Notes: generated from the sequence alone by a model not told the origin. Positions 3,858-19,818 are shown, counted from the first letter of the stretch. The stretch is 37,506 nucleotides of DNA from an uncultured Thermoplasmata archaeon (GCA_964015055.1 CAXHBG010000003.1:1-37506); one strand, 5' to 3'. Made by a program: numbers and translations.

Positions 3858-4781
3858 TTAGGCTGTAAATGTGGCGAATTCTCTGCAGAATACGCATGGT
3901 TCATGGCTACCTGAAGGTTCGCCACATGATGGGCATGGGATTAAGTCTTCTGGCTTTTGCATATTTTCCCGTATTTTTTCCATTCCATTAAGTAAAGAAT
4001 GCCTTGTCCCTGGTTGTTCTTTTTCTAATTTCATCAAAATTTCTCTAAATGTATTCCTTTGAGCTCCGCCAGAATGTGGACAATCCCCATCGTGAAATTC
4101 CATTTCTTTTAGTATGGAATATAGATATACTTCTTGTTCAGGAAGTCTTCTCAATGGTAGTAGTCGAGGGATAAAGCCCCTTTGAACAAATTTATGAGGT
4201 GCCATTCGCGATAATCTAGCAATATCGCCTCTTGCATGATTCATTAAAACAGTCTGTGCAAAGTCGTCAAGATTGTGGCCAAGAATTAAACAATCTACAT
4301 TTACTCGGTTTGCCATCTGGTTAAGTGATCTTCTTCTCAATATTCCACAAGGTGAGCATGGAGAGCCTTGAGGTGGTTTTTCAATTAGTAATTCACCCAA
4401 AGTAATTCCTATTAATTCTTTGTATGAGAATATTTCTAGTTGAATTTCTAGCTTATTACATTCCGAGGCTGCACATTCCAACGATTTAGAACGATAATTA
4501 GTAATTCCTTCGTCTACAGACAGCCCTACAATTTCAATATTTCTATTTCCAACATATGATTTCAAAATATGAAGTGCTACGGTAGAGTCCTTCCCGCCAG
4601 ATAGCCCAATACCAATTTTTCTAATATCTAAATCTGAATTTTTTACCAATAGGTTGATTTGTTTCCTTAATTCTTTTTGGGCATTTTTTTCAAAAGATTT
4701 AAAAAAACAAGATTTGCATAGGATTTCACCAGAATATCTTCTACTTATGACTGGATTTTCTTTGCAACGCTTGCAACCCAT
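3858..4781 (-). CDS. ttuA: tRNA 2-thiolation protein, TtuA/NcsA/Ncs6 family
   Basis: N-terminal CxxC...CxxC, PP-loop SGGKDS, CSPCG, GHNLDD, C-terminal CPSCG...CVFC. ATG at 4781 preferred over TTG at 4787. Confidence 0.9.
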   Translation of the reverse strand: MGCKRCKENPVISRRYSGEILCKSCFFKSFEKNAQKELRKQINLLVKNSDLDIRKIGIGLSGGKDSTVALHILKSYVGNRNIEIVGLSVDEGITNYRSKSLECAASECNKLEIQLEIFSYKELIGITLGELLIEKPPQGSPCSPCGILRRRSLNQMANRVNVDCLILGHNLDDFAQTVLMNHARGDIARLSRMAPHKFVQRGFIPRLLPLRRLPEQEVYLYSILKEMEFHDGDCPHSGGAQRNTFREILMKLEKEQPGTRHSLLNGMEKIRENMQKPEDLIPCPSCGEPSGSHEPCVFCREFATFTA

Positions 4782-16294: not shown

Positions 16295-17143
16295 TTATTG
16301 GCTAAGTGTTTCATAATCAGATTGTTTGAATACTGGAACATTGTTATTTTCAGCCCAAAGCTTCCATTTCCTATATTCTCTTTTTTTCATACCTTTCTTA
16401 TGGAAGTAAATTCCTTTAGAGTTTCCAGCTTTAATAGCATTCATCAGCATCTTACCAGTTAAATGAGGTATTCCATAGTTTGCTATTATGTGACCAAAAG
16501 ACACCTTATGAGACAGCGCAGCTTCAGTAAATCTTGGTGTGTAGTGCCCACCACCAAAACCTAGAACGCTTGTACCTTTTCTAAATTTAACTTCCAATAG
16601 CGATTTGATTAGGGCTTTCGCAGGTATTTTATCTTCCCATTGATTTTCTGTAGAACCAATCTCCATGAATATCGTTGGAGTCTTTAATAGAGGTCCGTGA
16701 TGTGTAGCTTCGAAACAGACATCATATCCCGTAATTTGATTTTTCTTTATTTCTCTTAATAGAGAAGTCATTATGTCAGCAGAGGGAGGCGTTACTTCTC
16801 CCTTAATACCACCATAATCGGCTTCGCCCCAGTTACCAATAGGATGTACAGTTAAACTTGGTTTGCCACTTGCAGCTTTGTGCCTGGATAGAAAAATTAT
16901 GTTGTCTATTTTAATTTCTAGTTCTTTCTCTACGATTTCGTCTATTTTTTCTGCATGAATGTGAATTTCATTGATAGTTATTAGGCGTGTCCCTTTACTA
17001 CAATAGTCACCTACAGACTCACAGATTTCCCAAACTCTATTTCCTTTAAATTTTCCGCATTCTTTCCACTTAGACATTTCCAGTAGCCTATCTCTCAAAT
17101 TTATTGACGCTGAATCTGCCTTAGAGGATATAATTAAATTCAT
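16295..17143 (-). CDS. dtdA: Archaeal D-aminoacyl-tRNA deacylase (DTD2 family)
   Basis: [31 protein letters not shown]. Confidence 0.92.
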
Positions 17144-18786
17144 AGGCCTTCAACAAGACCTACTCTTACGTTTCTCTCTTTAGCTACTTGCTTAGCACGT
17201 GAGTATCCTGCGTCTACGTGCCTCATAACTCCAGTTCCAGGATCTGTAGTCAAAACCCTTGCCAATCTCTCGTCAGCTTCTTTAGTTCCATCCGCAACGA
17301 CAACCATTCCCGAGTGTAGGGAGTATCCCATTCCAACACCACCCCCATGATGAAAGCTAACCCACGACGCACCAGATGCTGTATTCAATAATGCATTTAG
17401 AATTGGCCAGTCAGCTACAGCGTCACTGCCATCTTTCATTCCCTCAGTTTCTCTGTTTGGAGAAGCTACAGATCCAGAATCTAGATGATCTCTTCCAATC
17501 ACAAGAGGTGCCTTTACTTTTCCAGACTTTACTAACTCATTAAACGCAAGTCCGGCTTTTTTTCTTTCTCCATAGCCAAGCCAGCAAATTCTGGCAGGTA
17601 ATCCTTGAAAGCTAATTCTTTTTTGGGCCATTTTTACCCATTTTGCGAGGGCTTTATCTTCAGGGAATAATTCTAGCATAACTTTGTCAGTTTCCAAAAT
17701 GTCGCTTGGATCTCCAGATAAAGCAGCCCAGCGGAATGGTCCTTTTCCTTCACAAAATAGAGGCCTGATGTAAGCAGGAACGAATCCAGGAAAGTCAAAA
17801 GCATTCTTTACTCCAGCTTCTTTAGCCCTTTCTCGCAAATTGTTTCCATAGTCAAAAGTATGAGCTCCTCTATCTTTTAATTTTAACATGTGCTTAACAT
17901 GTGTTCCCATACTTTCATAACTTAATTTAATGTATTTATCAGGGTCCTGCTCTCTCAACTTATCAGCTTCTGTATTGGTCAATCTATGCGGTATGTAGCC
18001 TACTAGAGGATCATGTGCGGAGGTTTGATCGGTAAGTAAATCAGGGGTTACATTTCTCTCTATTAGCCTATCTAATAAGTCAATGATGTTTGCTTTAACT
18101 GCCATCGATTTTGCTATGTTATTTTCTTTCCACTCAATAGCAGTGTCAATTGCATAATCAATGTCATCAGTCATTTCGTCACAATATTTAGTATCTATTC
18201 GTTTTTGAATTCTTTCTTCATCCATCTCAGCAGCCAGAAATGTTCCTCCATTCATCGTAGCTGCAAGTGGTTGCGCACCACCCATTCCACCTAGACCTCC
18301 TGTAACGACTAGCTTACCTTCCAAACTACCTTCAAAATGCTGCCTTGCAGCTTCCGCAAATGTTTCAAAAGTTCCTTGAAGAATTCCTTGAGAACCGATG
18401 TAAATCCAAGAGCCTGCAGTCATTTGCCCATACATCATAAGTCCTTCTTTCTCAAGTTTATCAAAATGCTCCCAATTAGCCCAATTTCCAACTAAATTTG
18501 AATTTGCGATTAAAACTCTTGGTGCGTTTGTATGTGTTTTAAAAATTCCAACAGGTTTCCCGCTCTGCACAAGCAGAGTTTCATCATTTTCCAAACCTTG
18601 AAGTGAACTAACAATTGCATTATAGCACTCAATGTTTCGTGCAGCTTTTCCCCTGCCTCCGTAAACTATCAAATCTTCAGGTCTTTCGGCAACCTCAGGA
18701 TCTAAATTATTCATTAACATTCTGAGGGCAGCCTCTTGCAGCCAGCCTTTGCAACTCATATCAGTCCCATGTGGAGCTTTAACCAT
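17140..18786 (-). CDS. hutU: Urocanate hydratase
   Basis: [60 protein letters not shown]. Confidence 0.97.
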
Positions 18787-18857
18787 ATGGTATATTGTAA
18801 CACCCTCTAAATTAAATATATTTCTACGAATATTTTAAAAAAACCCGCTTATTTAAC

Positions 18858-18920
18858 GGTAGCTGCTCCCGGCGGGCCCCCTCCCACCTCCCAACCTGTC
18901 GGTTGAGCGGCAACATTTTT
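18858..18920 (+). ncRNA. Candidate small non-coding RNA: single GC-rich hairpin with a C-rich loop
   Basis: About 17 bp of stem with three G.U pairs on the + strand, an 18-nt loop CCCCCUCCCACCUCCCAA, upstream TTTTAAAA (18833-18840) and a downstream T5. Function is inferred. Confidence 0.55.
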
Positions 18921-18943
18921 AAATTCAATTTTAATTGTAAAGT

Positions 18944-19087
18944 ATGATTAATCACAGGACATATACAAATTACATACGTTGTTCATGTGGGTTTGTAGGT
19001 GAATCAATAGAGGCGAGACAACACAGAGAATGTCCCCAGTGCCATTCTGTAGTTGAGGCCTGCTGTGAAGGAAATAATTGTAATTAA
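18944..19087 (+). CDS. 47-aa Cys-rich zinc-ribbon-like microprotein (not in the ORF track)
   Basis: Manual translation: MINHRTYTNYIRCSCGFVGESIEARQHRECPQCHSVVEACCEGNNCN*. TTTTAAA lies about 21-27 nt upstream. The stop overlaps the sdhB stop by 4 nt (TTAA). Confidence 0.7.
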   Translation: MINHRTYTNYIRCSCGFVGESIEARQHRECPQCHSVVEACCEGNNCN

Positions 19088-19818
19088 TTGGTTTTCCCAG
19101 TTAATTTTCTCCAAATCCACTTTAGAGGGTCGTAGTACTCGTCTGCAACTCTCTCCTTTAGAGGAATGACTGCATTGTCTGTTATAGCAATACTTTCAGG
19201 GCACACTTCAGTACAACACTTTGTAATGTTACATAGACCAATTCCATTCTCATTTTTGATTGTTTCTAATCTGTCTCCCTGGTCCAATGGGTGCATTTCA
19301 AGCATAGCATTTCTAACCAAAAATCGAGGACCTGCGTACTCAGCCTTCATGTCACTATCACGAAGAACATGACACGTGTCTTGACACAGAAAACATTCGA
19401 TACATTTCCTAAATTCTTGAACTCGGTCAACATCTTCTTGCAACATTCTTGGATCGTTTGTCTCCGGATGTTGGTAAGGTAGAATTTTCTTATTTACCTC
19501 ATAGTTCCAGGAAACATCAGTTACCAAGTCTTTGACAACAGGAAAGGCTTTCATTGGTTTAATTACCAATGGCTCAGTAGGGTCATAGTCTGACATTCGA
19601 GTCATACACATAAGGCTTGGAATTCCGTTAACTTCAGCGGAGCATGAACCACATTTTCCAGCCTTGCAGTTCCATCTTACAGCTAAATCGGGTGCGTCAT
19701 TTGCTTGAATCTCGTGGATTGCATCGAGAACTACCATTCCAGGCCCACTCTCCATTTCAAACTCGTGCATGAAGTAGTCTTCTTCTTCACCTCTTTGAAT
19801 GATTATTTTTCTCTTCAT
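19084..19818 (-). CDS. sdhB: Succinate dehydrogenase/fumarate reductase Fe-S subunit (Sdh1-like)
   Basis: CKAGKCGSC, CIECFLCQDTC, CNITKCCTEVCP. Confidence 0.9.
   Translation of the reverse strand: MKRKIIIQRGEEEDYFMHEFEMESGPGMVVLDAIHEIQANDAPDLAVRWNCKAGKCGSCSAEVNGIPSLMCMTRMSDYDPTEPLVIKPMKAFPVVKDLVTDVSWNYEVNKKILPYQHPETNDPRMLQEDVDRVQEFRKCIECFLCQDTCHVLRDSDMKAEYAGPRFLVRNAMLEMHPLDQGDRLETIKNENGIGLCNITKCCTEVCPESIAITDNAVIPLKERVADEYYDPLKWIWRKLTGKTN

Follow-up and report, generated by a model that had tools for sequence, protein, structure and literature searches.

The element considered here is a short, GC-rich hairpin encoded in a 37,506-nucleotide (nt) stretch of DNA from an uncultured Thermoplasmata archaeon (GCA_964015055.1 CAXHBG010000003.1:1-37506), the whole of which we call the window; all coordinates refer to the window, with its first letter as position 1. 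The hairpin resides within the 157-nt gap that separates two divergent genes, one encoding urocanase (17140-18786, minus strand) and the other an open reading frame (ORF) for a 47-amino-acid (aa) protein (18944-19087, plus strand). Relatives of the adjacent urocanase are assigned to Marine Group III CG-Epi1 or Candidatus Poseidoniia. The element is very likely a functional RNA gene and, with slightly better than even confidence, we interpret its product as a trans-acting, base-pairing small RNA (sRNA) for which the best-supported target is the 3' region of hsp20. The features of the locus are listed below.

18834-18841, plus strand: TATA-like box TTTTAAAA, 20 nt before G18862, which predicts a start at about 18862
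18862-18920, plus strand: proposed small RNA of about 55-59 nt with predicted ends, comprising the hairpin, the AACA tail and a U-run
18862-18868, plus strand: 5' arm of the outer stem, GCTGCTC, which pairs with 18905-18911; 7 of 7 pairs are unchanged in 28 of 28 sequences
18869-18876, plus strand: 5' arm of the inner stem, CCGGCGGG, which pairs with 18895-18902 and includes two G.U pairs; the differences from one genus to the other are confined to G.U becoming G-C and C-G becoming U.G
18872-18885, plus strand: proposed pairing segment GCGGGCCCCCTCCC, made up of the top five bases of the 5' arm and nine bases from the start of the loop
18877-18894, plus strand: C-rich loop of 18 nt, CCCCCTCCCACCTCCCAA, with two CCTCCCA heptads, including CACCTCC
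18895-18902, plus strand: 3' arm of the inner stem, CCTGTCGG, supported by sequence, fold and alignment
18903-18904, plus strand: bulged TT; a bulge is present in 28 of 28 sequences, occasionally as TC, TA or CT
18905-18911, plus strand: 3' arm of the outer stem, GAGCGGC, invariant
18912-18920, plus strand: single-stranded AAC(A) tail, with AAC next to the stem in 27 of 28 sequences, and then T5 (18916-18920), which is probably an archaeal oligo-T terminator

The hairpin spans 18862-18911 on the plus strand and consists of 15 base pairs (bp), 7 in the outer stem and 8 in the inner one. It had been described, with its two stems, UU bulge, 18-nt loop and T5, in an earlier examination of this DNA (hereinafter the sequence-only reading), and each coordinate of that description agrees with the DNA, base for base. 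The minimum-energy structure that RNAfold yields for 93 nt of the plus strand is the same hairpin (-26.1 kcal/mol, z = -2.38, 1 of 200 shuffles as good), whereas the minus strand gives a different and less exceptional fold (z = -1.83, 10 of 200 shuffles as good). Three G.U pairs arise on the plus strand only, which points to an RNA from that strand, as the sequence-only reading had proposed. The GC-rich island in an AT-rich gap that had been pointed out at the same time is equally apparent: the GC content is 0.62 and 0.57 in the two 60-nt intervals that cover the element vs 0.22-0.30 in the adjoining ones.

The element is present in a single copy in its own genome (0.92 Mb, 77% complete). Strong DNA matches were detected in 29 of the 43 genomes of the same family, namely, 20 of 32 in genus g1, to which the window's genome belongs, 9 of 9 in genus g3, and 0 of 2 in genus g2. 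A covariance model (R1) built from 28 family sequences matches the window at 18859-18922 with 90 bits and identifies one locus per genome in 28 of the 45 genomes of the order, with no match in the 2 genomes of the order's second family. A pattern scan of metagenome contigs adds 44 contigs with the same layout and 13 sequence variants, 19 of these contigs being identical to the window over 53 nt; viral contigs contain no match to the element. The homologues with a conserved loop motif that were anticipated in Marine Group III are thus at hand. At the loci examined in both genera, the element is always the immediate upstream neighbour of the urocanase gene, in divergent orientation; the other side differs among genomes, with the 47-aa ORF here and an FG-GAP protein in g3.

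Across the 28 family sequences, which come from two genera, 10 of the 16 stem pairs are constant and 4 vary in one partner alone (G.U to G-C, or C-G to U.G); double changes are found in only two single sequences and do not exceed the shuffling controls. All the observed stem changes preserve pairing on the plus strand. Because the stem is nearly invariant, strict covariation is not established within the family, and the compensatory changes that the sequence-only reading had named as a check of the structure are almost absent there. The loop retains CTCCCACCTC in both genera, and the heptad CCTCCCA is present in 2 or 3 copies, with three copies in three genomes (L017, L018 and L020) and in 4 of the 44 metagenome contigs. 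Several assemblies break in or at the RNA gene (end of contig C65 and start of C16 in G027, start of C173 in G030, start of C126 in G024), probably as a result of strain-level length variation in the number of heptads. The element is near-invariant across two genera in which the urocanases are only about 72% identical, and its flanks are fully diverged, a juxtaposition that argues for selection on the putative RNA.

The candidate signals for transcription hold their positions across the same evolutionary distance. Genus g1 is AT-rich, g3 is GC-rich, and the flanks of the element cannot be aligned between them; in both, a T/A-rich box is found about 20 nt before the first base of the stem, with the distance of the TATA-like box kept within g1 and a T-rich box in the same place in g3. 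The upstream TATA-like box of the sequence-only reading is accordingly present, at the spacing given above and in a position kept in relatives. A T-run comes right after the AAC tail in both genera, in g3 as TTTT within GC-rich flanks; termination at oligo-T is a general feature of archaeal transcription. In the window's genome, TATA-like hexamers start 30-26 nt before the ATG in 96 of 737 upstream regions compared with 40 in a control window, a spacing consistent with many leaderless mRNAs in this organism. The claim that the genome looks leaderless holds to that extent, with genes led by a Shine-Dalgarno (SD) sequence in the minority. At the element, TTTTAA starts 28 nt before G18862, the same spacing as that of the genomic TATA-like hexamers before ATGs. 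Because the TATA spacing matches and a T-run follows, the RNA is predicted to extend from about 18862 to the U-run, and it would probably be transcribed from its own TATA box, from about G18862 to about 18916-18920.

The element matches no named RNA family and does not fit a protein-coding reading, in agreement with the sequence-only reading, which recognised no named family in it. There are no Rfam 15 matches at the gathering score in the whole window; at E-values up to 10, the interval 18700-19100 gives a single, meaningless match, to Acido-1 on the opposite strand (15.4 bits, the cut-off being 50). ARAGORN finds no tRNA genes in the window, nor is there a match to the Rfam tRNA model. Because all three plus-strand frames hit a stop or lack a start codon, and relatives differ by 7-nt insertions in the loop, with lengths that are not multiples of three, the element is not coding. 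Archaeal H/ACA guide RNAs are characterized by an ACA box on the 3' side of the lower stem, an internal pseudouridylation pocket, and a K-turn or K-loop; here, the stem is continuous save for the 2-nt bulge, the G-A that follows the bulge is Watson-Crick paired, the tail is AACA, or AACC and AACT in relatives, and inspection reveals no K-turn. The motifs of archaeal C/D box RNAs, RUGAUGA for box C and CUGA for box D, are both missing from 18862-18920. The literature searches returned no description of the element, which would be a lineage-specific archaeal sRNA with a C-rich seed; the only non-coding RNA (ncRNA) specific to this archaeal class that they found in print is Tan1, and, for Marine Groups II and III, they returned no regulatory RNA with a target.

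A candidate partner lies elsewhere in the same genome. The segment 18872-18885 is the exact complement of a G-rich box, GGGAGGGGGCCCGC, on contig C5 (770-783, plus strand), the sole exact 14-mer match of the element to the rest of the genome, which first surfaced as a weak secondary DNA match recurring in many g1 genomes. The stop codon of an Hsp20-family gene (C5 198-761, plus strand) lies 8 nt before the box, which directly adjoins that of a convergent cytidylyltransferase-like gene with serS behind it. The gap between hsp20 and the convergent gene, within which the box lies, amounts to 21 nt (in the interval C5 762-785) and, because the two are so close, the hsp20 transcript and that of the convergent operon must overlap at their 3' ends; over the box, the sRNA has the same sense as the 3' end of the cytidylyltransferase-like/serS operon. 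Although the box contains the SD-like GGAGG, the ATG that follows it opens a frame of only 38 codons and is dictated by the last codons of the convergent gene, so that the box is not a start site.

The two loci are conserved together. An alignment of 18 g1 genomes shows one and the same box in 17, while the preceding spacer differs in sequence and in length and the third codon positions nearby change freely. In the set of 18 genomes for which both the RNA and the box loci are available, the pairing is kept in all 18 and consists of 14 Watson-Crick pairs out of 14 in 15 of them. In genome G003, the count stays at 14 of 14 because both partners have changed, the RNA from G to A and the box from C to T; G030 has the G003 type of box, with the 5' part of its RNA off the contig. 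A C-to-T change in the box of G014 and G029 leaves 13 Watson-Crick pairs and one G.U, and G023 retains 11 Watson-Crick pairs, 2 G.U pairs and 1 mismatch. Altogether, there are 5 uncompensated differences, 4 of which are transitions that preserve a wobble pair. Cofolding of the RNA with its target predicts a heterodimer gain of -15 kcal/mol over the two separate folds vs a mean of -1.5 and a best value of -8.6 for 200 shuffled targets.

The absence of the RNA is matched by that of the box. In five g1 genomes, the region upstream of urocanase is assembled and the RNA is missing, and in 4 of the 4 RNA-less genomes in which the 3' region of hsp20 was found, the box is missing, too. These four form a clade in the urocanase tree that is sister to the window's clade (support 95/91) and nested among lineages with both RNA and box, which implies that the two were probably lost together; the fifth, G012, branches elsewhere in the tree, and hsp20 was not found in it. 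Four genomes (G004, G019, G021 and G022) have the box and no match to the RNA; because the urocanase 5' region, where the RNA locus would lie, is unassembled in all four, they are no counter-examples. On these grounds, we rate the chance that the RNA pairs with the hsp20 box as somewhat above even, with the box as a lineage-specific partner of the candidate RNA.

Several observations weigh against this interpretation. The 14-nt complementarity cannot be considered significant by itself, given that 84 of 1000 dinucleotide shuffles of the RNA reach a match of at least 14 nt in the genome. The co-variation comes down to about one double-change event and a few wobble changes among related genomes, and the co-loss is a single event traced on a single-gene tree. 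In g3, which keeps the RNA, the box is present in 0 of 5 hsp20 3' regions, DNA similarity reveals no other extended complement, and a pattern search with up to 3 mismatches does no better than a control pattern (a duplex scan of the g3 hsp20 locus is uninformative in such GC-rich DNA); because g3 has the RNA without the box, the hsp20 box can be neither the ancestral nor the sole function. The stem is invariant over its whole length in two genera, which is unusual for an sRNA scaffold and beyond what the presentation of a seed would need, and hints at a protein partner. Finally, the discrete plus-strand transcript of about 60 nt to which the sequence-only reading had looked for confirmation was not found in four marine RNA libraries (X1-X4), searched as assembled contigs, which show neither strand nor transcript ends. 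The only contig over the element, 164 nt long and derived from a close relative, comes from X3 at a depth of 4.3; its first base precedes the predicted start by about 59 nt and its end lies beyond the T-run, so that it may represent DNA carry-over or a longer transcript. In X1 and X2, the urocanase contigs end before the element and none covers it; neither does any contig in X4, where one starts exactly at 18944.

The RNA would fold into the 15-bp hairpin, present its C-rich loop and most likely act in trans on G-rich RNA. If the hsp20 box is indeed the partner, pairing would be initiated by contact of the loop (CCCCCTCCC) with the G-run of the box, and the duplex would then extend into the upper stem, where the two G.U pairs should be easy to displace and would be replaced by G-C pairs with the target. 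The expected effect is an altered fate of the 3' end of the hsp20 mRNA: binding could protect or expose this end and so change the stability of the message, or the RNA could act as a competitor, either of the antisense 3' end of the convergent cytidylyltransferase-like/serS operon or of the 16S tail of the ribosome at the SD-like box. A more specific version, which we put forward tentatively and consider doubtful, is a riboregulator that mimics the 16S tail and competes with ribosomes or with the antisense 3' end for the box, with the G.U-weakened upper stem serving as a temperature gate that exposes the pairing segment on heat stress, and with the RNA and the box gained and lost as a co-evolving pair.

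Archaea of Marine Groups II and III abound in the ocean and have yet to be cultured. The element is a defined, conserved sRNA candidate with a concrete partner suggested by the co-variation of two unlinked loci, one of them linked to a stress gene; if the assignment is true, Marine Group III would gain its first inferred pair of sRNA and target. Should it be confirmed, pairing between a C-rich loop and a G-rich box would be seen to work also in this lineage, at the 3' end of an mRNA and in a genome in which many mRNAs are seemingly leaderless.

The sequence-only reading had proposed a trans-acting translational regulator or SD mimic, on the strength of the loop copies of CCUCCC and of CACCUCC, which matches the 16S 3' tail. 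The loop indeed carries two heptads, and its CACCTCC is identical, over seven bases, to part of the 16S 3' end GGATCACCTCCT of G034, a genome of the same family, with the same 3' end in a sister-order genome of genus g7. The only 16S gene in the window's own assembly (contig C36, 8485-9523) stops at the contig end, at about model position 1046 and, because its tail is thereby cut off, the match within the same genome is presumed from the relatives. A general mimic of the anti-SD sequence, in which the loop would occlude the ribosome-binding sites (RBSs) of many SD-led mRNAs or sponge SD-like sequences and so tune translation globally, with the hsp20 box possibly as one partner among others, is nevertheless unlikely. 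The identity to the 16S tail speaks for such a mimic, as do the tandem heptads, repeated 2-3 times and kept in both genera, the GGAGG of the hsp20 box itself, and the precedents described in bacteria (cuckoo RNAs) and Methanosarcina (sRNA154 and sRNA41). A subset of genes is SD-led, too: a 5-mer SD core occurs at -20 to -3 in 11.7% of 693 upstream regions vs 4.6% in the control window, and a 4-mer core in 30.7% vs 13.6%. Strong duplexes, however, are not enriched at gene starts. In a scan over a crude set of start sites (the first ATG of long ORFs), loop-mRNA duplexes of -12 kcal/mol or better were found in 64 of 746 start regions, in 53 of 756 windows from coding interiors and, with the loop reversed, in 58 start regions, so that the prediction over mRNA starts shows no excess over the controls and global occlusion of RBSs is neither supported nor excluded. 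Furthermore, the genome holds only a handful of 8-9-nt G-rich complements, mostly inside genes, with one of them probably a tRNA arm; a search of the 43 family genomes for the complement of the whole loop, with up to 2 mismatches, retrieved only the RNA gene itself; and the single partner that co-evolves with the RNA does not coincide with a start codon. What stands of the original proposal, therefore, is the anti-SD loop on a conserved RNA; its action on translation starts gains no support from an excess of pairing there, and the supported partner lies behind a stop codon.

Among the other explanations, a protein-binding RNA or small ribonucleoprotein, in which the stem, UU bulge and C-rich heptads would form a platform or decoy for, e.g., a poly(C)-type or Sm-like binder, with pairing secondary, is quite improbable. 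Its main argument is the stem, which is near-invariant in two genera with only about 72% identical urocanases, whereas ordinary sRNA scaffolds drift by compensatory change; the copy number of the heptads varies, as it does in multi-site protein sponges; and a U-rich 3' tail would suit an Sm-like protein. Yet the gene neighbourhood names no partner, with a variable downstream flank and a metabolic enzyme upstream, and the complementary, co-varying hsp20 box is left unexplained. We assign a very low probability to a cis element of the urocanase (hut) locus or of the downstream gene, that is, a divergent promoter structure or a leader. The constant placement immediately ahead of urocanase, in divergent orientation in the two genera, would fit such an element, but it lies beyond the urocanase promoter, on the opposite strand and with a T-run of its own, the downstream gene is different in g3, and five g1 genomes retain urocanase with a normal upstream region and without the element. 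Just as improbable is a relic or otherwise non-functional GC-rich hairpin, such as a DNA repeat, an attachment site, or a remnant of the similar hairpin that in genus g7, of Marine Group II, is found inside a conserved leaderless ORF. The existence of that hairpin and the assemblies that break at or in the element (G027, G030 and G024) speak for such a relic; against it, the element is near-invariant over two genera while its flanks have fully diverged, is single-copy and absent from viral contigs, and has G.U pairs that point to an RNA from one strand, and the contig breaks are explained by the variation in the number of heptads. The trans-acting, base-pairing sRNA thus remains our preferred reading.

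For such an sRNA, partial analogues exist in both bacteria and archaea. RNAIII and the Rsa RNAs of Staphylococcus aureus are multi-hairpin RNAs with UCCC loop motifs that target SD regions; they share with the element C-rich loop seeds directed at G-rich mRNA, are bacterial, and represent a resemblance only. The cuckoo RNAs of alphaproteobacteria (RSs0680/CcsR and SmelC397, among others) consist of 2-4 adjacent hairpins, each with the loop CCUCCUCCC, and have stems that vary by compensatory change; they are trans-encoded, stress-linked and Hfq-associated (PMC4615179). The likeness lies in the repeated, C-rich and partly anti-SD loop motif and in the stem as a scaffold. The element differs in having one hairpin instead of 2-4, with 2-3 copies of CCTCCCA in one loop from which the motif CCUCCUCCC is absent (CCCCCTCCCACCTCCCAA), an invariant stem (the 10 constant pairs of 16 given above, instead of variable, compensating stems), an archaeal host, with relatives in Marine Group III and not in alphaproteobacteria, and no Rfam match.

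Archaeal precedents are covered in a review, which describes both sRNAs with anti-RBS loops and sRNAs that bind 3' untranslated regions (UTRs) (PMC5867862). The intergenic sRNA154 and sRNA41 of Methanosarcina mazei have anti-RBS loops and, according to that review, mask RBSs at starts or inside polycistronic mRNAs (PMC5867862). The element resembles them as an archaeal RNA with a loop complementary to the SD sequence, its CACCTCC being that of the G034 16S tail, and with proposed pairing to mRNA; it is set apart by the location of its supported partner box behind a stop codon. In this respect, it comes closer to the trans-encoded sRNAs of Sulfolobus solfataricus, an organism in which many mRNAs are leaderless, that pair with mRNA 3' UTRs according to the same review (PMC5867862): here, too, an extended complement is found behind a stop codon and is conserved with the RNA, with the box as a putative transcribed 3' UTR. 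Sulfolobus belongs to another phylum, and its sRNAs are not known to resemble the element, itself known from sequence alone, in sequence or structure. Tan1, from Thalassoarchaea, is described as an abundant, 229-nt ncRNA of Marine Group II with a complex fold (PMC5069720); it differs in these respects from the element, which is about 56 nt long and occurs in Marine Group III.

Beyond the order, a class-wide search with R1 gave only weak matches, most of them coding or unconvincing, and genus g7 was the only one with a consistent locus; a weak match in genus g13 was rejected because it falls in a metallo-beta-lactamase-like frame. With the family-only model, the E-values per g7 genome range from 0.0027 to about 1, which is not significant over about 100 genomes. 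Of the 28 g7 genomes, 26 contain the hairpin according to a joint model (R2), as does 1 of 123 genomes from 11 other genera of g7's family. This hairpin has in common with the element a UU bulge on the 3' side, a loop with TCCCATC(C/T)C and the GGCAAC end, and its inner stem varies by clear compensatory changes. In the joint alignment, 8 of 16 pairs covary (0 of 500 shuffles), a result that we do not use as evidence, given an alignment fitted to the model and the unproven homology of the g7 hairpin. We regard such homology as possible, if rather less likely than not.

The g7 hairpin resides inside a conserved, apparently leaderless frame of about 85 codons, in the same register at 25 of 26 loci, where insertions and deletions keep the frame; at the 26th locus, the script picked another frame. 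The encoded protein of about 85 aa carries the motif AHPSGxLPSxFAAVGWQP, has no Pfam match and no match in the window's genome, and is found at 4461-4778 (plus strand) of locus L083 (genome G087) and at 25 other loci (L087-L112); the stop codon of this ORF and the start of a DUF3860 gene overlap, with UbiA next in line. The coding sequence holds a hairpin of 17-20 bp with compensatory changes, which would be an RNA structure within a small ORF. Upstream of the ORF (L083, about 4320-4560), there is a conserved inverted repeat, TTCACTTT...AAAGTGAA, followed, 22 nt ahead of the ATG, by a conserved CTTGATATAC box; the repeat is probably an operator and the box a TATA box. In many g7 assemblies, the sequence stops about 170-500 nt short of the hairpin on its upstream side, at or past a divergent tRNA gene, which suggests that a variable island adjoins this gene.

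Returning to the window, the 47-aa ORF begins 24 nt after the T-run and encodes a Cys-rich protein with the pattern CxC...CPxC...CC..C and no Pfam match. A homologue is found beside urocanase in G006, a genome without the RNA, and an RNA-library contig from X4 starts exactly at the ATG of this ORF, which may encode a small zinc-binding protein translated from a leaderless message. The urocanase on the other side matches Poseidoniia proteins at 80-97% identity, and its best matches beyond these are from Bacteroidota and Planctomycetota (about 65-73%), which hints at a possible acquisition of the hut gene from bacteria. In G006, the urocanase match (contig C47, 27286-28929; locus L161) contains one in-frame TAA that may reflect a pseudogene, a sequencing error or recoding.

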